A stretch of 32,000 nt of DNA from Nitrosococcus oceani ATCC 19707 (GTDB taxonomy: Bacteria; Pseudomonadota; Gammaproteobacteria; Nitrosococcales; Nitrosococcaceae): contig NC_007483.1 of NCBI RefSeq assembly GCF_000012805.1, positions 8,421 to 40,420 of the forward strand. Direction: 5' to 3'. How positions within the stretch are numbered: position 1 is the first letter of the stretch; the number at the start of each line of letters is the position of its first letter. Shown in pieces: positions 6,565 through 22,209 of this stretch. A program made the translations under genes and the position numbers. A model generated the notes under the pieces. It did not search any database and had not been told where the DNA came from. It saw only the letters and a program-made list of their open reading frames with translations.

Positions 6565-6816
6565 GACGATACGCCGGAGTTTTGGGCAGAGGCGATGAAG
6601 CGAGTATTAGAGTATTATAAACAAGGGTTATCGTTGGCGGAGGCTGCCGAGCGGTTATCGATTCCGAAAGTGACCTTAACGACATGGGGTCAGCAAAGCC
6701 AAAGGGGGAAAGCGCCAGCGGCGCCACTCGTGCCTTGGCTACCTGGCCCCGGCTGTGTTTGCTCAAAACTTCCGCAAACCACAGGGGGTTACCTGAAACA
6801 GGAGCGTCCACGATGA
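6550..6816 (+). CDS. Small HTH protein or transposase-N-terminus-like fragment
   Basis: MELKQDDTPEFWAEAMKRVLEYYKQGLSLAEAAERLSIPKVTLTTW resembles the HTH N-termini of IS transposase or terminase-small-like proteins. The remainder is low complexity, so this is possibly a remnant. Confidence 0.35.
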   Translation: MELKQDDTPEFWAEAMKRVLEYYKQGLSLAEAAERLSIPKVTLTTWGQQSQRGKAPAAPLVPWLPGPGCVCSKLPQTTGGYLKQERPR

Positions 6817-6872
6817 CCAGGACACCTCAGTCACGATTGAAGGTTTGGAGACCCATGCCATCGTCCACAGCC

Positions 6873-8336
6873 ATGAAGCATCAGGATATCGGTTGGCATT
6901 TTGATAACACCTATGCGCAGCTGCCCGACCACTTTTACACGAAGCTGCATCCGGTTCCGGTGCATGAACCACGCCTTGTCATTGTCAATAATGCCCTGGC
7001 AGAAGAACTAGGATTAAATCTCAAAGCCTCCTCTGAGGATGAATTAGCGCAGCTTTTTTCAGGCAATCAGCTTCCAGAAGGTGCAGAGCCTCTGGCGCAG
7101 GCCTACGCCGGGCATCAGTTTGGCCATTTTACCTATTTGGGTGATGGGCGGGCCCATTTAATCGGCGAGCATCTCACCCCAGACGGTAAACGGGTGGATA
7201 TTCAGTTCAAAGGCTCGGGCCAAACACCCTATGCCCGGCGCGGTGATGGGCGTGCAGCGTTGGGTCCGATGCTGCGAGAGTATATCATCAGCGAAGCCAT
7301 GCATGCGCTGGGCATCCCTACCACCCGTAGTCTTGCGATAGCCACCACCGGCGAATCTGTTTACCGGGAAACGGTACTGCAAGGAGCGATTCTGACCCGC
7401 GTCGCATCCAGTCACTTGCGTGTGGGCACATTTGAATATCTGGCCGCACAAGAAGATAAAGCAGGCCTGAAGCAACTTACTGATTATGCTATACAGCGCC
7501 ATTATCCAGAAATAATAGACTCTGATACTCCCTATCTTGAGCTGCTCAAGGCCGTCATGGCTTGCCAGATAAAACTTATCACCGAATGGCTGCGAGTAGG
7601 GTTTATTCACGGCGTGATGAACACGGACAATATGGCCGTTTCCTGTCAGACCATTGATTATGGCCCCTGTGCATTCATGGATAGCTATGATCCCAACACC
7701 GTGTTCAGCTCCATCGACCACATGGGGCGTTATGCCTATGCCAATCAGCCCCGTATCGCGCAGTGGAACTTAGCACGGTTTGCTGAAGCTATCCTTCCGC
7801 TACTGCATGAAAATATTGAGAAGGCTGCCGCAATGGCAGAGGAAGTCATCCAGTCATTTAAGGCATTATTTCAGCAGGAATGGCTAGCAATGATGCGTCG
7901 CAAGCTGGGGCTGTTCGGTGAAGAAAAAGAAGATAGGGAATTCATCACCGGGCTTCTGCAATGGATGCAACGCAGTCATGCGGATTATACCAATACATTC
8001 CGTGATTTGATGGATGAGCATTTTCCCGAAGAGCCACACTATCAGGATCAAGAATTCAAACATTGGTACGATAGATGGCAACAGCGGCTGGAACATAACA
8101 CCAACCCGTTCCCATCCTCCCTGTGCCTCATGGGTGCGACCAACCCGGTGGTCATACCCCGTAATCATCGTGTAGAAGCAGCGCTTAACGCTGTAGAACA
8201 GAACGCTGACTTCTCAAAGCTACATGAATTGCTGGATGTGCTGTCTGAGCCCTATAAAGATAAAGAGAAATACACTGAATTCAAAAACCCTCCTGCGCCG
8301 AAAGAACGGGTGTACCAAACCTTTTGTGGTACTTGA
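6873..8336 (+). CDS. selO: SelO/YdiU-family protein adenylyltransferase (AMPylating pseudokinase fold)
   Basis: ORF 6684-8336; the family-typical start is MKHQDIGWHFDNTYAQLPDHFY at ATG 6873, giving 487 aa. Hallmarks are GHQFGHFTYLGDGRAHLIGE, FKGSGQTPYARRGDGRAALGPMLREY, and HGVMNTDNM with the IDYGPCAFMD region. Confidence 0.9.
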   Translation: MKHQDIGWHFDNTYAQLPDHFYTKLHPVPVHEPRLVIVNNALAEELGLNLKASSEDELAQLFSGNQLPEGAEPLAQAYAGHQFGHFTYLGDGRAHLIGEHLTPDGKRVDIQFKGSGQTPYARRGDGRAALGPMLREYIISEAMHALGIPTTRSLAIATTGESVYRETVLQGAILTRVASSHLRVGTFEYLAAQEDKAGLKQLTDYAIQRHYPEIIDSDTPYLELLKAVMACQIKLITEWLRVGFIHGVMNTDNMAVSCQTIDYGPCAFMDSYDPNTVFSSIDHMGRYAYANQPRIAQWNLARFAEAILPLLHENIEKAAAMAEEVIQSFKALFQQEWLAMMRRKLGLFGEEKEDREFITGLLQWMQRSHADYTNTFRDLMDEHFPEEPHYQDQEFKHWYDRWQQRLEHNTNPFPSSLCLMGATNPVVIPRNHRVEAALNAVEQNADFSKLHELLDVLSEPYKDKEKYTEFKNPPAPKERVYQTFCGT

Positions 8337-11163: not shown

Positions 11164-12126
11164 TTATTCCTGAAGAGGATGAATGAGTAGATTCCAATAA
11201 TATTCGGAAGCACCTTCATTGGTGAGCTTTTCCTTAGCAGCAGGTTGATGAAACTGCATGCCGAGCGGCTTCAAATACATCATATGGCCATCATCTTCGA
11301 TTCGAAGTTGCTCATTGAAACTACTGTCACTACCTGTATCACCGTACGCATACACGAGGCCACTGGTGAAAGAATTTTGACTGCCTTGCCAGATGCGGCA
11401 ACTGCTGATGGATTTGCCATTTTCATAAATGGCAGCGGAGAAATGGCGGGCATCAATACGTCGGAATCGAGTTCGAATACTAGGATTACGCCGCTCCAGC
11501 TCAGCTAGAGAACCCTCGAAGAAATTTGCCATATAATCAAATGCATCATCGAGAAAGGTATCACGGTCATGGTCCGTGAAACTCTTCCTGATACGTAAAT
11601 TGCTGGATCGTAGCGCATGCCGTACAGGAGCAGTCTGCTCGGTAGGTGGGTAAGCAGATAAGCCCGTCTGAGGCTTGATGGGAGCCGATATCACTTGCTC
11701 GGCAGCTCGTTTGATTGCCTTGACGATTTCTAAAAAGGCCTCGTCTTTATCTGGAAACTTCGTCACGGGTTTGCCATCCGTAGGCGTTGCTAAAAGCTTG
11801 CCGAAGCGTGCGCTATGCCAGTCGCAGGGGCGGAGAATTACCGGAATAACTTTGGCATTACCTTCTTCATGCCGCTCCAAAGCGCGGGTCATCTCGACAT
11901 CGTAACAATAGTCGGAAGCCAGGAAATCCGGGCTGACTAAGAGAAGAGTGATATCGGCATTCTCAAGATTTTCACTGATAGTCTGGTCAATGACCTCTCC
12001 GGCCCCAATTCTCCGGTCATGCCAGGCATCAATCACACCTTGGCGTTTGAGCATGGCAAGGTGTATCTCCAGCTCGTCACGCAAAGGCTCATCCTTATGG
12101 GAGTAAGAGAAGAAGACAGAGGCCAT
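11164..12126 (-). CDS. TIR-domain protein with an uncharacterised C-terminal domain of about 180 aa
   Basis: From ATG 12126: MASVFFSYSHKDEPLRDELEIHLAMLKRQGVIDAWHDRRIGAGE...ADITLLLVSPDFLASDYCYDVEMTRAL...VIPVILRPCDW is a typical bacterial TIR_2 pattern. The C-terminal half matches no family I recognise. Confidence 0.8.
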   Translation of the reverse strand: MASVFFSYSHKDEPLRDELEIHLAMLKRQGVIDAWHDRRIGAGEVIDQTISENLENADITLLLVSPDFLASDYCYDVEMTRALERHEEGNAKVIPVILRPCDWHSARFGKLLATPTDGKPVTKFPDKDEAFLEIVKAIKRAAEQVISAPIKPQTGLSAYPPTEQTAPVRHALRSSNLRIRKSFTDHDRDTFLDDAFDYMANFFEGSLAELERRNPSIRTRFRRIDARHFSAAIYENGKSISSCRIWQGSQNSFTSGLVYAYGDTGSDSSFNEQLRIEDDGHMMYLKPLGMQFHQPAAKEKLTNEGASEYYWNLLIHPLQE

Positions 12127-12147
12127 CAGTTTTTTCTCGATCAATGG

Positions 12148-14872: not shown

Positions 14873-15587
14873 AATCTCAAAGTCTAAACACATAGCTTCC
14901 CAAAGGAAACTATGCCACAAGCTGTGGCCCAAAGAGAGTACGGACTAGTTCTTTTCTCCTTACCTGCGACTCCGGTAGTGGCCTCGAACGTAGGTTTCCT
15001 CTCCCGGTAATAGGCGTCATCGTGAGGTTTGTGCGCTGAATTGCAAATACCCTCTACACTTCTATCCGAACAATTCTGTAAGCAGTTGCCCTTCCTACGC
15101 CAAGCTGTCTACGTGAACACGGAAAGCAAATACGGCGTCGTTTAGTCGTAACCCAAGAGGTAACCTCGCCCGATTCGCACCATCACAACGGCTGCACCAG
15201 ACGTGTGCGGCCGTTCTTTTGGACGAAAAGCCAGCCGACGTATCGAGTTGTCGGCTATATTCATTGACTGTCCGCTTGTGACCGCCTTCTACGGACGGTG
15301 GTTTATGGCCGATAATGCGATTTATAAATTTGAAAGCCTGGCCCCCATCACCACAAGAGAAACTCTCTTATCTCCCGAATTAATGCCGTTATAGATGATG
15401 TGCAACTGGAAGCCATCACAACTGATATTGTCTGACCGCGTACTGATCTAATTGGCTCATTGTGTCTTGGCACAGTAATTTTCACTACTCGGTAAAATCT
15501 AGTGCGCTGCTGTGTGTGGCTAACTTGCCTTGTCCGCCGATTCCTTTAACCTCAACTCAATAGCAACCTAATCGCCTGGAGCGCTCA

Positions 15588-18338
15588 ATGGCTTTCGATC
15601 AAACCTACTGCATGGATACCCTCATTGCTGCGACCCGGCCTGATGCTGATCTCGGAGAGTTCATTTTTGCCTTTCTCGACGCCTATAACTTTCCCAAGGC
15701 GACGGTTACGCAGATTCGCAAGGGTGGTCAACGTAACGTCGCCAGCCGTAAAAATGAAGGGCACGTCGCGATGAAGAACTGGCTGTACTTCATGCCGGTG
15801 CGAGCGGGCGAGAGCATTCACGAGGCGCTCCAGGTACTGGCAGATGAAGAAGAGCCGCCGCGCCATAAGTGTCGCTTTCTGGTGGTGACCGACTATCAAG
15901 AACTCACTGCACTGGATACCAGGACGGATGAGCGTTTGGAGGTGATTCTCGGTGAGCTGGCCACCCAATACCTGTTCTTTGCCCCCATGGCGGGGCTTGA
16001 GCGTACCAAGCCATTTAGCGAAGAATCGGCCGACCTCAAGGCCGCCGCCAAGATGGGGCGGCTGTTTGATCGCCTGAAGGAAATCAACGAGTTTCAGACT
16101 CCCGAGCAGCTTCACGCGCTTAACGTGTTTCTGACCCGGTTGCTGTTCTGCTATTTCGCTGAGGATACCGGGATTTTCCCCAAGAACGCCTTCACCAAAG
16201 TGATCACCGAAGCTAGCGGCAAGAACGGCGAGGGGCTATCCGACCTACTAAAGCAGCTGTTCCGAGTGATGGATCAAGCCGAGGGCGAGCGACCGGCGGA
16301 CTTGCCAGCTCATATTGCCCAGTTCCCTTATGTCAACGGCGGCCTATTCCGTGACAACATGCCAGCCCCCAAGATGCGCGGTAAAGCCAGACGGATGATG
16401 ATCGAGTGCGGCAAACTCCAGTGGAAGGCCGTCAACCCCGATATCTTCGGCTCGATGTTTCAGGCGGTAGTAGACGAAAAGAGCCGTGACTCGTTGGGCC
16501 AGCACTACACCTCTGTACCGAACATCATGAAGGTGATCCGTCCCCTGTTCCTCGACAAGCTGTATGCCGACCTGCACAAGTCAAAGGGCAAACGCAGGCA
16601 ACTGGAAGCACTACTGGTACGGCTGGCCCGTATTTGGGTGTTCGATCCGGCGATGGGCTCCGGCAATTTTCTGATCATCGCCTATAAGGAACTGCGCCGA
16701 CTGGAGATGGCCACCTTCCGGTCACTTCAAGCTATGAGTGGTAGTGGCCAGCAGGAAATTTTCATGAGTGGCATCCAGCTCAGCCAGTTCTATGGTATCG
16801 AGATCGACGATTTCGCGCACGAAATTGCCCAGCTATCCCTATGGCTGGTTGAGCATCAGATGAACACGCTGTTTGTAAAGGAGTTTGGTCATGCTGAGCC
16901 AGTGCTACCGCTAAAAGATACTGCCAACTTGGTGCAAGGAAATAGCCTTCGGATGGATTGGCAGAAGGTATGTCCCAATGATGGCAGCGCTGAAATATAT
17001 GTATGCGGGAACCCGCCATTTATTGGCCATGGTAGTCGAGAGAATAGCCAGCTCGACGATATGCGATTGGTGTTAGGGCAGCTGATTCGCACATACAAGT
17101 CCCTCGACTATGTGGCCTGCTGGTTCTTTTTGGCTGCGGAATACTGTCGCCACGGGACAGCAAACGCCGCCTTTGTGTCGACGAACTCTCTATGCCAAGG
17201 CAAACAAGCGGGGCTACTGTGGCCGTTGTTGGTAGATATGGGGATGAAAATCAGCTTTAGCTACCAAACTTTCCCTTGGCGGAACAGTGCAAAGGGTAAC
17301 GCAGGTGTGCATGTTGTGGTCATTGGGCTGGCTGCTCATAACGGACCACGGGTACTCTTCAACCGTATTGATGGTGCCTGGCATCGTAAAGAAGTTACGA
17401 ACATCAGCCCCTATCTACTAGAAGGAGGCGACACTGTTGTACGGGAGCGACGAGATCCGCTAATTCAGGACGCATTACCAATGTACTTTGGCAATATGCC
17501 TAACGACGGTGGCCACCTCCTGTTGACCGCAGGGGATAAAGAGAAGTTAATCGCACAAGAGCCCGCGGCAGAGGCTTGGATCAAGCGCTTAATGGGGGCT
17601 AAAGAGTTCCTGCAAGGCCATGAGCGCTGGTGTCTGTGGTTGGTTAATGCCACGAAAGAAGAAATCGATGCTATGCCTGTGGTTCGCGAGCGAGTGGAGC
17701 GTGTGCGGGAAACACGTCTTGCTAGCAAAGATGCTGGCGCACGAAAGCTCGCCGAACGGCCGCACCAATTCCGAGACCTTAATAACCCGGAAAGCTTCAT
17801 TTTAGTCCCAAGCGTTACATCCGAGCGCCGGAAATATGCGCCCGTCGGGATTTTTGAAGAAGACGTAATTGCTACTAACCTAACATTAATCATTCCAGAT
17901 GCTGGGTTATACGATTTCGCCATTCTTTCCACGCAAATGCACATGGACTGGCTACGCCTGGTGGGAGGCCGTTTAGAAAGCCGTTACCGCTATTCTGCAA
18001 CTATCGTCTACAACACCTTCCCTTGGCCCAATGCTACCGAAGCACAGCGTAACGCTATCGAAAAACTAGGCCGAGCCGTTATTCTGGCGCGTGCAGCGCA
18101 TCCCGATAAAACCATGGCCCAGCTTTATGACCCGGACAAGATGCCGGACAAACTGCTGGAGGCCCACCAAGCACTGGACCGCGCCGTGGAGCGCCTGTAT
18201 CGGGAGCGCCCCTTCCGCGATACCGCTGAGCGTCAGGAATATCTGCTGGCCCGCTATGAGTCGCTGATTGAGGCGGAGAAAACCGCCAAGGCTGGTAGCA
18301 GGAAACAGCCTCGAAAAGCCACGAGTATGGAGAGTTAA
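15588..18338 (+). CDS. MmeI-family (type IIL/IIG-like) N6-adenine DNA methyltransferase/specificity protein, N-terminal nuclease motif apparently degenerate
   Basis: 916 aa (MmeI is about 919 aa). Long collinear matches to my recollection of MmeI include LLFCYFAEDTGIF, FPYVNGGLF, HYTS, VFDPAMGSGNFLI (SAM motif I), GIEIDDFAHEIAQLSLWLVEHQMN, GNPPFIG (motif IV, nt 17010-17021), AFVSTNSLCQGKQAGLLWP, RWCLWL, VGGRLESRYRYSATIVYNTFPWP and LYDPDKMP..LLEAHQALDRAV. Confidence 0.9.
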   Translation: MAFDQTYCMDTLIAATRPDADLGEFIFAFLDAYNFPKATVTQIRKGGQRNVASRKNEGHVAMKNWLYFMPVRAGESIHEALQVLADEEEPPRHKCRFLVVTDYQELTALDTRTDERLEVILGELATQYLFFAPMAGLERTKPFSEESADLKAAAKMGRLFDRLKEINEFQTPEQLHALNVFLTRLLFCYFAEDTGIFPKNAFTKVITEASGKNGEGLSDLLKQLFRVMDQAEGERPADLPAHIAQFPYVNGGLFRDNMPAPKMRGKARRMMIECGKLQWKAVNPDIFGSMFQAVVDEKSRDSLGQHYTSVPNIMKVIRPLFLDKLYADLHKSKGKRRQLEALLVRLARIWVFDPAMGSGNFLIIAYKELRRLEMATFRSLQAMSGSGQQEIFMSGIQLSQFYGIEIDDFAHEIAQLSLWLVEHQMNTLFVKEFGHAEPVLPLKDTANLVQGNSLRMDWQKVCPNDGSAEIYVCGNPPFIGHGSRENSQLDDMRLVLGQLIRTYKSLDYVACWFFLAAEYCRHGTANAAFVSTNSLCQGKQAGLLWPLLVDMGMKISFSYQTFPWRNSAKGNAGVHVVVIGLAAHNGPRVLFNRIDGAWHRKEVTNISPYLLEGGDTVVRERRDPLIQDALPMYFGNMPNDGGHLLLTAGDKEKLIAQEPAAEAWIKRLMGAKEFLQGHERWCLWLVNATKEEIDAMPVVRERVERVRETRLASKDAGARKLAERPHQFRDLNNPESFILVPSVTSERRKYAPVGIFEEDVIATNLTLIIPDAGLYDFAILSTQMHMDWLRLVGGRLESRYRYSATIVYNTFPWPNATEAQRNAIEKLGRAVILARAAHPDKTMAQLYDPDKMPDKLLEAHQALDRAVERLYRERPFRDTAERQEYLLARYESLIEAEKTAKAGSRKQPRKATSMES

Positions 18339-18341
18339 GGC

Positions 18342-20423
18342 ATGACGGAACTGATCAAGGTTGAATACGGTCGCACCGGCAAGAGTACCAATAGCAATAC
18401 CTTGGGTATGCGGGAGATGCAGGCCCGAGCATACGAAAAACGCGACAGTCAGTACTTGTTGCTCAAGGCACCACCGGCCTCCGGCAAATCGCGAGCACTG
18501 ATGTTTCTGGCCCTCCATAAGCTCCATTGCACTGGCCTGCGCAAAGCCATCGTTGCTGTGCCGGAGATATCGATTGGGGCATCCTTTAAGAGCACCGACC
18601 TTACTACTCACGGCTTCGAGTGGGACTGGCACGTGGAAGACCGCAACGACCTATGCCGCGCCGGCAATGACAGCGGCAAGGTGGACGCTTTCTGTCGCTT
18701 CATGGCGAGCCCGACCGATCGTATCCTGGTCTGCACCCACGCCACGCTGCGATTCGCGTTTGCCAAGCTCGGTCCTAGCGACTTTGATGACTGCCTGGTG
18801 GCCATCGACGAATTTCACCATGTCTCGGTCGATGAAGGCAACCGTCTGGGTGGATTGATCGACGATCTGATGCTGGGCGCCACGGCGCATATCGTGGCGA
18901 TGACCGGCAGTTACTTCCGCGGTGACGCCGCACCGATCCTGCTGCCGGACGACGAAGCCCGTTTCAACAAAGTGACCTACACTTACTACGAACAGCTCAA
19001 CGGCTACCGCTATCTGAAGTCACTGGGCATTGGCTACCATTTCTACCCAGGGCGCTACCTCGATGCGATTAATGAGGTGCTTGATCCTGATAAGAAAACC
19101 ATCGTCCATATTCCCAACGTCAACAGCGGCGAAAGCACCAAAGACAAGTATAGTGAGGTCGATCATATTCTCGATGCGCTGGGTGAGGTGGAGGCCCAGG
19201 ACAGCCAGACCGGTATCGTAACAGTGCGCCATCCCTCGGGACGCTTGCTCAAGGTTGCTGACCTGGTAACGGATACGCCTATCCGCCGCGATGTGCAGGA
19301 GTATCTGCGCGGCGTAGAGCACCCCGAAGACGTGGACGTGATCATTGCCTTGGGTATGGCCAAGGAAGGCTTTGACTGGCCGTTCTGTGAGCATGTACTG
19401 ACCATTGGCTATCGCCGATCGATGACCGAGATTGTCCAGATCATCGGGCGTGCCACGCGTGACAGCGAGGGCAAGACTCATGCCCAGTTCACTAACTTGA
19501 TCGCTCAGCCGGACGCAGACGATGAGGACGTGAAGGTCAGCGTCAACAACCTACTCAAGGCGATCACGGTGTCACTGCTGATGGAACAAGTGCTGGCACC
19601 TAGCGTGTCCTTTAAGCCGCGTTCGCGGATGCAGGCGGGTGAAGAGACGGAGCCAGGCACGATAATCATTGAGGATACTCAGGCGCCAGTCTCGGACAAG
19701 GTGATCAGCATCCTCCAGTCAGGCGGCCAGGAAGACATTATTGCCGCACTCCTGCAAAAGTCGGAAGTGGCTGCTGCGGCAGTGACGGAGGTTGTCGAGC
19801 CTGAGGTAATCAATGAGTTCGAACTACCTAAGGTTATCGAGCGTCTGCACCCTGAGCTGGATGCTAACGAGCGCGAGCTACTCCGCGAGACAGTGCTAAC
19901 CACCATGGGTGCCCGCGCCACAGGCGGGTTGTTTAACGAAGAAGACTTGCCCGAAGGCGCTGAGATACATGAGCCTGGCCAAATCTATGACACACATGGC
20001 GATGGGCAGCCGGCCGAGCTCGGTACTGCGTCCGATGGACGTGACCTCAGTGATGACAGCAGCGAGGGTGGGGCATCGGGCAGCCGTCAGTTCCTCAAAA
20101 TTGGCGATAAGTTCGTTAACATCGAACACCTCAATATTGACTTGATCAATCAGATCAACCCTTTCCAAGGGGCCTATGAAATTCTCTCCAAGGCGCTGAC
20201 GGCACCGGTGCTCAAGGCGATTCAGGACACCGTGGTAGGCGACCGGGCGCAGATGACCGAGGAGGAAGCGGTGATATTGTGGCCCAGAATTGTAGAGTTC
20301 AGGAAAGCTAAGGGACGAGCACCGATGGTGCATAGTGATGATCACATGGAGGTCCGCTACGCTCTGGCACTGGCCTATATCCAGCATAAAAAGCGTGAGC
20401 GTATGCAGGAGGCCACAACATGA
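18342..20423 (+). CDS. SF2 DEAD/DEAH-box (ResIII-like) helicase with a C-terminal extension of about 260 aa
   Basis: 693 aa. Motif I is KAPPASGKSR, motif II AIDEFHH, motif III MTGSYFRGD and motif VI QIIGRATRD. The start lies 3 nt after the MTase stop and is preceded by GGAGAG. The stop overlaps the next gene (ATGA). Confidence 0.85.
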   Translation: MTELIKVEYGRTGKSTNSNTLGMREMQARAYEKRDSQYLLLKAPPASGKSRALMFLALHKLHCTGLRKAIVAVPEISIGASFKSTDLTTHGFEWDWHVEDRNDLCRAGNDSGKVDAFCRFMASPTDRILVCTHATLRFAFAKLGPSDFDDCLVAIDEFHHVSVDEGNRLGGLIDDLMLGATAHIVAMTGSYFRGDAAPILLPDDEARFNKVTYTYYEQLNGYRYLKSLGIGYHFYPGRYLDAINEVLDPDKKTIVHIPNVNSGESTKDKYSEVDHILDALGEVEAQDSQTGIVTVRHPSGRLLKVADLVTDTPIRRDVQEYLRGVEHPEDVDVIIALGMAKEGFDWPFCEHVLTIGYRRSMTEIVQIIGRATRDSEGKTHAQFTNLIAQPDADDEDVKVSVNNLLKAITVSLLMEQVLAPSVSFKPRSRMQAGEETEPGTIIIEDTQAPVSDKVISILQSGGQEDIIAALLQKSEVAAAAVTEVVEPEVINEFELPKVIERLHPELDANERELLRETVLTTMGARATGGLFNEEDLPEGAEIHEPGQIYDTHGDGQPAELGTASDGRDLSDDSSEGGASGSRQFLKIGDKFVNIEHLNIDLINQINPFQGAYEILSKALTAPVLKAIQDTVVGDRAQMTEEEAVILWPRIVEFRKAKGRAPMVHSDDHMEVRYALALAYIQHKKRERMQEATT

Positions 20424-21760
20424 TTCGTACCCGCCGCGAGCCCTTCAAGCGCCGAACGCTAGATGACATCTTTGCAGAGCCTGACAGTCTTGGTCTGCTT
20501 GACGTGGGTCCTAAGCGTGCTGCCGCGCCGACCGCTAATCAACGATTAGTAGCCAGGCTTCAGACGATTGCGGCTTTCGTCAGCGAGCAGGGGCGCGAGC
20601 CTACTCAGAACGCTGATGATCTTGGCGAGGCGACCCTGGCCGTGCAGTTGAGCGCCATACGCGCCAACCCTGAGCATGTGGCCGCCTTGACCGTCTGGGA
20701 TACTCATGGGTTGCTGGAAGCGTCAGTGGCCCGTGAGCTCCGACCCAGCGCGCTGGCAACGACTGCATCAGCGCCAGCACCGCCTGTTGAAGGAGATAGC
20801 TCTGCACCTTCAACGATGCCCCCTCAACAGGAGACCACATCTCCCGATGCGGTCACCTCATTGGAGGATATCTGGGCTAGTGATGTTCTGGGCCTATTGG
20901 GCAGCGCTGATGAGAACGTGGACTCGATATTCGACCTGCAACACGTATCCAAGGTTGAATATAAAGACTTGCCGGACGAAATCGCGCAGCGCACCCACTG
21001 CGATGACTTTTATCGCTTCGAGAGCCTGTTTGATGAAGTGCGCCAGGAGCTCCGCTCCGGTGATGCCGAGGCGGTGCCTTTCCAGAGGGAGTCCCAGATC
21101 GCTGAAGGGGATATGTTTATTCTCAACGGCATGATCTGTATTACGGATCAGGTAGGCAAGGAGAGTATCGGTGCCGGCACCAAATTCAATCCTCGTCTGC
21201 GCGTCGTCTACGACAACGGTACAGAGTCTAACCTGTTGCTGCGCTCACTGGCCAGGGCGCTCTACAAAGACAAAGTTGGGCGGCGCATTCTGCGGCCCGA
21301 TAGCACTTTCGATGCCATGCGCGGTATCACGCATCGTGACAAGCGCACCGGCATGATTTATATCCTACGCTCGCTGAGCCTGAATCCAGCGCTAAACGGT
21401 ATACGTAATCTTCATAAGATCGGCTACACTGAGAAAGACTTGGATGCCCGCCTAGCCAGTGCAGAAAAGCAACAAACGTACCTCGAAGCACCGGTCAAGG
21501 TCGTTGCCTCCTTCGACTGCTACAACCTCGATCCACGTCGTTTCGAACGCCTCGTCCATACCATGCTCCACCATCAGCGCGTTAACGTCACGCTCCACGA
21601 CCGCGATGGTAGCACTTACCGCCCTCGCGAATGGTTTGATGTAGAGCTAGAAACCGCCCGTGAAGTGGTCAACCGTATTGTGGATGGCACCATCGCACAG
21701 TACCGGATGGATAACACCACTGGAAGGTTGGTGGCGAAAAGAGAAAAAGACGTTGGCTGA
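20420..21760 (+). CDS. T5orf172/MUG113 (GIY-YIG superfamily-like) domain protein with N-terminal domain and Pro/Ser/Ala-rich linker
   Basis: 446 aa. The C-terminal GMIYILRSL....LHKIGYTEKDLDARL......VKVVASFDCYN.RRFERLVHTML.......REWFDV fits the T5orf172 pattern (G.iYil...........KIG.T...............E..lH........EWF). There is a 4-nt overlap with the helicase gene. Confidence 0.75.
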   Translation: MIRTRREPFKRRTLDDIFAEPDSLGLLDVGPKRAAAPTANQRLVARLQTIAAFVSEQGREPTQNADDLGEATLAVQLSAIRANPEHVAALTVWDTHGLLEASVARELRPSALATTASAPAPPVEGDSSAPSTMPPQQETTSPDAVTSLEDIWASDVLGLLGSADENVDSIFDLQHVSKVEYKDLPDEIAQRTHCDDFYRFESLFDEVRQELRSGDAEAVPFQRESQIAEGDMFILNGMICITDQVGKESIGAGTKFNPRLRVVYDNGTESNLLLRSLARALYKDKVGRRILRPDSTFDAMRGITHRDKRTGMIYILRSLSLNPALNGIRNLHKIGYTEKDLDARLASAEKQQTYLEAPVKVVASFDCYNLDPRRFERLVHTMLHHQRVNVTLHDRDGSTYRPREWFDVELETAREVVNRIVDGTIAQYRMDNTTGRLVAKREKDVG

Positions 21761-21909: not shown

Positions 21910-22209
21910 TCATCCTACAAGCCAAATACCACCCGCCTCGGCGGCAGAGCTGGTCATCTCCTTGCAGTAGCACTTAGGACCATACACACGTAGAGGACGC
22001 TTGCTTGCCAAATGCCAAACGCTTTGCCCGGTTGCCGTAGGGCTGATGCTTCTCTGGCCGCCTATTTCAGTCAGGCGCACTTTAATTGGTTGGTCACCGG
22101 CTGCTAGCAGGGTAAGCGTATCGCCGTCAGTTATTCCCACCACGCGTCCAGTGTGGTCGGCCAAAGCCGCCAGGGAGAAAAACAGAAACAGGATTATTAT
22201 TTTTCTCAT
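21910..22209 (-). pseudogene. Frameshifted, truncated staphylococcal-nuclease-like thermonuclease gene
   Basis: The signal peptide plus GRVVGITDGDTLTLL...IKVRLTEI matches the SNase N-terminus. The expected continuation (PEKHQPYGNRAKRLAFGKQ) is in another frame from about 22057 and stops at 21974. At least one frameshift and a premature stop are present. Confidence 0.55.

Follow-up and report, generated by a model that had tools for sequence, protein, structure and literature searches.

The question raised by this locus is whether three tightly packed genes of Nitrosococcus oceani ATCC 19707, encoding an MmeI-family methyltransferase (gene 1), a superfamily 2 (SF2) helicase (gene 2) and a T5orf172 protein (gene 3), constitute a restriction system that had escaped description or a copy of one already known, and how their products might divide the work of restriction between them. 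The genes lie within a stretch of 32,000 nt (NC_007483.1, positions 8,421 to 40,420 of the forward strand), here called the window, whose own numbering is used unless another locus is named. An earlier note on this DNA had presented them as an uncharacterised gene combination. Our analysis identified them as orthologues of YeeA (also named DnmA), YeeB and YeeC of Bacillus subtilis, a class that was published together with a proposed mechanism in 2009 (PMC2731913), and the claim of novelty does not survive this. The operon is the N. oceani plasmid-A member of the DnmA/YeeA-YeeB-YeeC family, already known since 2009 and poorly understood. We consider it likely that it encodes a three-subunit, ATP-dependent, 'type I-like' restriction-modification (R-M) system with its evolutionary origin in the MmeI (type IIL) lineage.

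A plasmid-borne operon of the YeeA-YeeB-YeeC family

All three products had full-length orthologues in B. subtilis. Gene 1 was 42 % identical to YeeA over 886 aa (residues 13-895), N-terminal domain included, gene 2 matched 'YeeB [Bacillus subtilis]' (P0447) at 53 % identity along the entire YeeB sequence, and gene 3 was 34 % identical to YeeC (E 4e-70); the YeeB record was retrieved by a search seeded with a Bacillus helicase. The B. subtilis chromosomal locus, retrieved for comparison, showed the published layout, yefBC-yeeA-yeeB-yeeC-yeeD. Morgan et al. (2009, PMC2731913) distinguished two groups of MmeI homologues, one with a PD-ExK motif and a second without it, and reported the latter to be 'invariably' flanked by a DEAD-type YeeB-like helicase and a GIY-YIG YeeC-like protein. 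They speculated that specificity and protective modification come from the MmeI-like subunit and DNA cutting from the helicase and endonuclease subunits, much as in type I systems but with modification of a single strand. Every sequence-level feature defining this second group was found at our locus: MmeI homology along the whole length of gene 1, no gene 1 residues matching MmeI D70, E80 and K82, a YeeB-like DEAD/DEAH helicase directly downstream of gene 1, and a YeeC-like GIY-YIG/T5orf172 protein downstream of the helicase. Later work found the dnmA-yeeB-yeeC order conserved across species, with defence genes enriched nearby, and assigned YeeC to the T5orf172 proteins (Fernandez et al. 2023, PMC9973331).

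A previously unrecognised defence system, in which an MmeI-like protein had teamed up with unrelated helicase and nuclease partners, is favoured by the annotation tools: PADLOC and NCBIfam returned no multi-gene system, no NCBIfam family scored above threshold for any of the three proteins, and genes 2 and 3 gave only weak matches (PbeA, 1.5e-5; PDC-S57, 6e-7). It is refuted by the YeeA/YeeB/YeeC orthology and by the appearance of the class in print in 2009 (PMC2731913), with experimental follow-up since, and we regard it as extremely improbable. The genes thus belong to an already described system, an outcome that the earlier note had allowed for, although this emerged from the literature and not from PADLOC, which would label gene 1 alone and names no system for genes 2 and 3.

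Both junctions described in the earlier note for these co-oriented genes could be read directly in the sequence, namely a 3-nt spacer between genes 1 and 2 (TAA-GGC-ATG, within ...AGTTAA GGC ATG...) and a 4-nt ATGA overlap between genes 2 and 3 (...ACAACATGATT...). Shine-Dalgarno-like GGAG/AGGAGG sequences, also read directly, lie 8-10 nt 5' of all three gene starts. The three genes form one operon and are translationally coupled, and chance open reading frames (ORFs) are no concern because all three products have strong homologues. The promoter presumably lies in the 715-nt intergenic region 5' of gene 1. A sigma-70 consensus scan of this region gave no plus-strand promoter site, an Rfam search of it matched no family, and a terminator scan returned one weak terminator-like hairpin inside it (Table 1).

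We assessed conservation of the arrangement in 80 loci fetched from species-representative genomes, with eligibility decided by the length of flanking sequence (at least 5.8 kb upstream). An MmeI-like gene was present upstream on the same strand in all 48 loci with sufficient upstream sequence, and a YeeC homologue lay directly downstream in 71 of 72 eligible loci, the single exception being an ORF-boundary artefact. All three genes were found together in 47 of the 47 loci eligible on both sides, which bears out the co-occurrence that the earlier note had proposed to check. The helicase family comprised 2,229 cluster representatives (E up to 0.001); at least 599 species-representative genomes and 264 plasmids carry a member, and the family occurs in Escherichia coli, Pseudomonas, Vibrio, Acinetobacter, Enterococcus and candidate-phyla-radiation bacteria. 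Taxonomically, the loci range over Proteobacteria, Bacteroidota, Firmicutes, Actinobacteria, Planctomycetes, Chlamydiae, Spirochaetes, Cyanobacteria and relatives, and candidate-phyla-radiation bacteria, and the same gene order recurred in E. coli as well as in plasmids from four phyla (Ligilactobacillus, Synechococcus, Paenarthrobacter and Methylosinus). A megablast search with the window operon itself returned no match in E. coli genomes or PLSDB plasmids, collections that evidently lack the N. oceani plasmid, and the operon was intact and identical in several N. oceani strains. On this evidence the three genes are inseparable in evolution.

Guest genes were inserted between the methyltransferase and helicase genes in 17 of 48 loci (among them L018, L021, L027, L034, L035, L044, L059, L074, L085, L004 and L006). 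They encoded RhuM, PDDEXK_3, Fic/DOC with Abi_C, Schlafen AlbA_2 with HATPase_c_4, DUF4268, a RelE/ParE pair and unknown proteins. Guests of these kinds (RhuM, Fic, Abi) also occur inside type I R-M operons, and we take their presence as type-I-like behaviour of the locus, in favour of a restriction function.

A methyltransferase with a predicted dead nuclease domain, and its partners

The earlier note had described gene 1 as collinear with MmeI through the helical spacer, methyltransferase, target recognition and C-terminal regions. Two lines of evidence agree with this: all five MmeI Pfam domains were detected (MmeI_hel at 3e-24, the remainder as given in Table 1), and the MmeI structure 5HR4 aligned with gene 1 residues 92-900 (phmmer, E 8e-193). 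A regular-expression search placed DPAMGSGNF at residue 353 and NPPF at residue 475, and among 59 full-length gene 1 relatives methyltransferase motif I was present in 57 and motif IV in 56.

The key diagnostic, which the earlier note did not notice, lies in the N-terminal domain, where alignment indicated that the nuclease residues of MmeI have been lost. These residues are D70, E80 and K82 (PMC2731913). In the phmmer search against PDB sequences, residues 1-91 of gene 1 remained unaligned, the match beginning at query residue 92 (MmeI residue 105), and this unaligned part covers the segment that holds D70, E80 and K82. We therefore turned to a MAFFT alignment of MmeI residues 1-180 (100 % identical to 5HR4) with gene 1 and 59 relatives from other genomes. 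Opposite MmeI D70, E80 and K82 (segment VDLFWPGILLIEMK), gene 1 has H, M and V (segment HVAMKNWLYFMPV), and across the 60 family members the E80 column was mostly K/R, the K82 column V/E/T/A and the E51 column R/K/Q. The N-terminal alignment of gene 1 with MmeI, at about 15 % identity, is uncertain in detail, and no register restores an ExK. Nor does an ExK occur anywhere in the gene 1 nuclease core; the sole [DE]xK within residues 1-170 is D149-L-K151, in a linker region outside that core. Gene 1 is, judging from these alignments, an MmeI homologue whose nuclease domain is predicted to be catalytically dead, and since its N-terminal domain lacks the PD-ExK residues, it would be unable to cut DNA itself. 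The earlier statement that MmeI-type enzymes normally act alone is true only of the nuclease-bearing group.

This evidence also bears on the simplest explanation of the locus, that of an ordinary single-polypeptide type IIL/IIG enzyme lying beside two unrelated genes. The PADLOC model REase_MTase_IIG (PDLC03598) matched gene 1 over its full length with 986 bits, and detection of the MmeI_N Pfam domain points the same way. That score reflects the common methyltransferase, target recognition domain and scaffold, not catalytic residues. The active PD-ExK that a type IIL/IIG enzyme carries in the same polypeptide was not found in gene 1, equivalents of D70, E80 and K82 are absent from the window protein and its relatives, and B. 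subtilis DnmA showed no endonuclease activity when assayed in the conditions applied to other MmeI homologues (PMC7261158). Co-occurrence with the helicase and YeeC is, moreover, obligatory. Gene 1 shares with MmeI and other type IIL enzymes the helical spacer, gamma-class methyltransferase, target recognition and C-terminal domains (residues 92-900) and, probably, modification of one strand. It differs from them in lacking the catalytic D-x9-ExK and in being always accompanied by a helicase and a GIY-YIG protein, and is therefore not a self-contained restriction enzyme; we give the single-polypeptide explanation almost no weight. Automated defence annotation will nonetheless mislabel gene 1 as a stand-alone type IIG R-M enzyme and ignore genes 2 and 3.

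In gene 2, SF2 helicase motifs I (GKS48-50), II (DEFHH156-160), III (TGS188-190) and VI (QIIGRATRD366-374) were identified, and two independent alignments showed all four to be invariant among relatives. Pfam support was weak, with Helicase_C at 23.6 bits against a cutoff of 23.5 and DEAD under its cutoff, and ResIII gave no match to the gene 2 protein, although precomputed ResIII matches exist for orthologues. Of the 'ResIII-like helicase carrying all core motifs' in the earlier note, the motifs are thus confirmed, and a ResIII match for gene 2 itself is not. A profile search against PDB sequences returned only a marginal match to DHX58. The fold search retrieved generic SF2 motors, with Snf2 translocases and the type I subunit EcoR124I HsdR near the top beside RNA helicases and RecQ, matches that are compatible with a double-stranded DNA translocase and no proof of one. 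Nearly all helicase relatives (84 of 85) reach the C-terminus. For the C-terminal third of the gene 2 protein Pfam gave nothing at E up to 10. The helicase of N. oceani strain AFC27 is recorded in GenBank as a protein of only 517 aa that begins at Met177 and lacks motifs I and II. A frameshift was considered for it and rejected; the gene is intact (693 aa, L090 3379-5460), and the short protein is an annotation start-site artefact.

The T5orf172 domain reported in the earlier note for gene 3 was recovered by Pfam, both as T5orf172 and as MUG113 (GIY-YIG clan). Within it, G311, Y314, K333-I334-G335, R344 and E404-W405-F406 were invariant among 37 gene 3 relatives, and Y336 nearly so, making gene 3 a putative GIY-YIG-type nuclease with an intact motif set. 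An AlphaFold2 (AF2) model contained three folded domains and a long, predicted disordered linker rich in Pro, Ser, Thr and Ala. Gene 3 (446 aa) is longer than B. subtilis YeeC (382 aa), and much of the difference lies in this linker. The middle, beta-rich domain had no Pfam match at E up to 10 and gave only weak, non-significant SH3/KOW-like fold matches. The C-terminal tail (residues 422-446) is conserved; it is absent in B. subtilis YeeC and was undetected in several other relatives, mostly Firmicutes. We considered whether its short C-terminus meant that B. subtilis YeeC had decayed and dropped this idea, since the alignments of those other relatives end at the same point.

A further feature links genes 2 and 3. 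The C-terminus of the helicase and the N-terminus of gene 3 each carry a helix-loop-helix module of about 43 residues, and the two are homologous (hhalign probability 96.4 %, E 1.2e-9), sharing the pattern F..GR.P....D..E..LA; the conserved gene 3 residues F53, P61 and E70 align with F653, P661 and E670 of gene 2. Hidden Markov models (HMMs) of the modules cross-matched only the partner family, the helicase module finding 12 YeeC N-termini and the YeeC module 15 YeeB C-termini, with no match in the methyltransferase or in unrelated ORFs. Pfam gave nothing for either module at E up to 10. The module may be an assembly or docking element.

In B. subtilis, yeeB stops at an in-frame amber codon, TAG (L087 8795-8797), in place of which close relatives, such as the 92 %-identical Bacillus mediterraneensis gene (L020, about 7795-7800), have GAG. 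Beyond the TAG, another 42 codons still specify the conserved C-terminal module, which is exactly the part that the amber codon removes. The common module and the yeeB amber codon, both side observations of our analysis, are new.

Proposed mechanism and how it compares

By analogy with the B. subtilis orthologue, which makes N6-methyladenine (m6A) at GACGAG (Nye et al. 2020, PMC7261158), gene 1 would most likely write m6A on one strand of a short asymmetric site, a methylation that would label the DNA of host and plasmid as self. The intact motifs, together with the obligatory synteny, suggest that cutting has passed to the putative GIY-YIG/T5orf172 nuclease of gene 3 and that the SF2 DExH motor of gene 2 supplies ATP-driven DNA movement or remodelling. 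Unmodified sites bound by gene 1 would then license the motor and the nuclease. The module of about 43 residues probably assembles the complex, perhaps, and here we speculate, on the dead nuclease domain of gene 1. Modification by MmeI-type enzymes is confined to one strand, and for this reason cutting would probably require a pair of unmodified sites or a collision of complexes, on the pattern of MmeI, type III and type ISP enzymes. The division of labour suggested in the earlier note, with recognition and modification by gene 1, movement by gene 2 and cleavage by gene 3, is consistent with these results; only its supposed novelty is not, having been anticipated in 2009 (PMC2731913).

In favour of restriction, Vibrio crassostreae 7F1_18 became sensitive again to one subgroup of phages once yeeAB had been inactivated (Piel et al. 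2021 preprint, 10.1101/2021.05.05.442762). Several points weigh against the restriction mechanism proposed here. The V. crassostreae test inactivated only yeeA and yeeB, and protection was limited to the one phage subgroup (10.1101/2021.05.05.442762). The B. subtilis cluster showed no phage phenotype and was called a relic (PMC9973331), having no effect on transformation or on three phages (PMC9973331, PMC7261158). In the open literature searched we found no biochemical demonstration of restriction for any family member. The gene 2 model was of low confidence (predicted local distance difference test, pLDDT, 61), and its fold matches cannot separate double-stranded DNA translocases from other SF2 proteins. 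A fold search with the full gene 3 model, finally, gave no significant GIY-YIG structure in the PDB.

Should the B. subtilis verdict apply to the window, only the methyltransferase would work, in the role of an orphan epigenetic regulator, with helicase and nuclease as non-functional passengers. This conclusion was drawn for B. subtilis DnmA-YeeB-YeeC itself, where deletion of dnmA, yeeB or yeeC left growth, transformation and phage sensitivity unchanged (for dnmA, growth and transformation were reported unaffected by Nye et al., PMC7261158) and where DnmA affects the expression of some genes (PMC9973331, PMC7261158). In the window, by contrast, the three ORFs are full length with every catalytic motif intact, the genes are translationally coupled, and the helicase retains the C-terminal module, of which the amber codon deprives the B. 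subtilis allele; 84 of 85 helicase relatives likewise extend to the C-terminus. The presence of the triad together in every eligible locus, across many phyla, argues for selection on all three genes. The amber codon may explain the 'relic' behaviour of the B. subtilis cluster, and because yeeB carries it, the negative phenotype is weaker evidence against intact copies. We consider a relic unlikely at this locus. The only deeply studied model-organism copy appears to carry a helicase nonsense mutation.

The plasmid setting raises another possibility, that of an addiction module for which post-segregational killing of plasmid-free cells, as with many plasmid-encoded R-M systems, is the primary role on plasmid A and anti-phage defence a secondary one. 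The plasmid, which encodes ParA/ParB, KfrA and RepA, also carries AbiE and MazF toxin-antitoxin modules, a load that has been read as plasmid-stabilising (PMC7285500), and the helicase family is common on plasmids (264). Most family members among the at least 599 genomes are chromosomal, however, and ΔdnmA was not toxic in B. subtilis (PMC7261158), though that allele is defective. Such a role would not exclude restriction, and needs the same molecular mechanism; as the primary role we think it improbable, a shade more so than a relic.

Returning to the type I-like R-M reading, the closest relatives of the operon are the DnmA-YeeB-YeeC locus of B. subtilis and yeeAB(C) of V. crassostreae 7F1_18, which have the same three families in the same order and orientation, a methyltransferase without PD-ExK, and a location in mobile or defence-rich DNA. 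The window copy differs from the B. subtilis cluster in being plasmid-borne, in keeping the helicase C-terminal module, and in a YeeC with the conserved tail and a longer disordered linker. Like type I R-M systems (HsdM/HsdS/HsdR, e.g. EcoR124I), it separates recognition and modification from motor and nuclease, and it uses an SF2 motor with HsdR among its top fold matches. Here, however, the putative nuclease is a GIY-YIG protein of its own and not a PD-ExK domain joined to the motor, a separate S subunit is missing, and one would expect a short, asymmetric site with methylation on one strand. In PADLOC, gene 2 matched only a Type I REase_MTase model (E 0.0026), and no HsdS was found; the likeness to type I is one of function, not of components. 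Type ISP enzymes (LlaGI, LlaBIII) likewise combine a nuclease, an SF2 motor, a gamma-class adenine methyltransferase and a target recognition domain, and act on asymmetric sites with single-strand methylation, but do so in one polypeptide with an Mrr-type nuclease, against three polypeptides and a putative GIY-YIG nuclease here. In function, the locus would appear to come closest to type I and type ISP systems, with other parts as its building blocks.

By its components the locus is neither DISARM nor BREX. Class 1 DISARM (DrmMI, DrmA, DrmB, DrmC, DrmD) shares the general logic of methyltransferase, helicase and nuclease, and the gene 1 methyltransferase and target recognition domain resemble DrmMI (PADLOC, 7e-34). 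Genes 2 and 3 gave no DrmA, DrmB or DrmC matches in PADLOC at E up to 0.01, and the locus differs in having no DUF1998 protein, no phospholipase D-type (PLD) nuclease and a helicase of another family. For BREX, PglX scored 25 bits against an NCBIfam cutoff of 500, with no PglZ or BrxC-type neighbour genes.

Whether these triads form a mechanistically distinct class of ATP-dependent R-M systems is a more tentative matter. In such a class the module would join helicase and nuclease to each other, or to the methyltransferase through its dead nuclease domain, the 'relic' verdict in B. subtilis would be due to the amber codon, and intact copies would be active; we hold this to be possible, with the balance somewhat against it. 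With gene combination, conservation and proposed mechanism in print since 2009, the locus has little discovery value as such. Its family is nevertheless a very widespread restriction-like system.

Plasmid context and coordinates of features

The window comes from N. oceani plasmid A, and gene 3 was 100 % identical to an annotated protein of the plasmid in N. oceani ATCC 19707. This 40.4-kb plasmid is nearly identical in four strains and absent from AFC132, with one REBASE methyltransferase cluster, and its toxin-antitoxin load has been read as stabilising it (PMC7285500). Plasmid genes in the region encode ParA, ParB, KfrA, a resolvase and RepA. The dense defence island described in the earlier note (TIR, AbiE, Abi_2, MazEF) was recovered as a ThsB-like TIR protein (421 bits), AbiEi/AbiEii (about 363 bits each), AbiD/Abi_2 and MazF. 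Coordinates of the operon, its parts and its neighbours are collected in Table 1.

Table 1. Features of the operon and its surroundings, in window coordinates
Feature	Position	Strand	Evidence
Gene 1, YeeA/DnmA orthologue, gamma-class N6-adenine methyltransferase and target recognition domain	15588-18338	+	ORF, 916 aa; five MmeI Pfam domains
Gene 1 N-terminal domain, residues 1-165, MmeI_N-like, without PD-ExK catalytic residues	15588-16082	+	MmeI_N 7e-20
Gene 1 methyltransferase domain, residues 330-591	16575-17360	+	MmeI_Mtase 2e-99
Gene 1 target recognition and C-terminal domains, residues 614-894	17427-18269	+	MmeI_TRD 1e-75, MmeI_C 1.5e-23
Gene 1/gene 2 junction, 3-nt spacer	18336-18344	+	Direct sequence reading
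Gene 2, YeeB orthologue, SF2 DExH ATPase/helicase	18342-20423	+	ORF, 693 aa; 53 % identity to YeeB
Gene 2 C-terminal helix-loop-helix module, residues 643-685	20268-20396	+	hhalign to gene 3 module; pLDDT 84-90
Gene 2/gene 3 junction, 4-nt overlap	20420-20423	+	Direct sequence reading
Gene 3, YeeC orthologue	20420-21760	+	ORF, 446 aa; 34 % identity, E 4e-70 to B. subtilis YeeC
Gene 3 N-terminal helix-loop-helix module, residues 43-85	20546-20674	+	hhalign to gene 2 C-terminus; pLDDT ~90
Gene 3 linker, residues 102-189, Pro/Ser/Thr/Ala-rich, predicted disordered	20723-20986	+	pLDDT <50
Gene 3 middle beta-rich domain, residues 190-300	20987-21319	+	AF2 model pLDDT 84-91
Gene 3 T5orf172/MUG113 (GIY-YIG clan) domain, residues 311-420	21350-21679	+	Pfam 1.7e-15, 1.2e-18
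Intergenic region 5' of gene 1, 715 nt, presumed promoter location	14873-15587	+	No plus-strand ORF of at least 70 aa
Weak terminator-like hairpin	15233-15256		Terminator scan
SelO protein adenylyltransferase, full length	6684-8336	+	Pfam 1.5e-118
ThsB-like TIR protein, full length	11164-12144	-	PADLOC ThsB1, 421 bits
WGR-domain protein, 86 aa	14612-14872	+	Pfam 7e-21
ORF of 99 aa, signal-peptide-like start	21910-22209	-	No match in Pfam or PADLOC

No ThsA-like protein was found among the window ORFs scanned against Pfam or PADLOC, and the ThsB-like TIR protein may be an orphan or a variant Thoeris component. A stand-alone WGR-domain protein is encoded between AbiEii and the 715-nt region upstream of gene 1, and was kept at the same position in all fetched N. 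oceani plasmid copies that reach that far (L089, L091-L093). Downstream of the operon, on the opposite strand, the segment of the 99-aa ORF that comes after its signal-peptide-like start (TGRVVGITDGDTLTLL...IKVRLTEI) resembles, by eye, the N-terminus of staphylococcal-nuclease-type plasmid nucleases, and this ORF may be a truncated nuclease remnant. Amid the partition and recombination genes, the plasmid also encodes a full-length SelO protein adenylyltransferase, which is unusual plasmid cargo.

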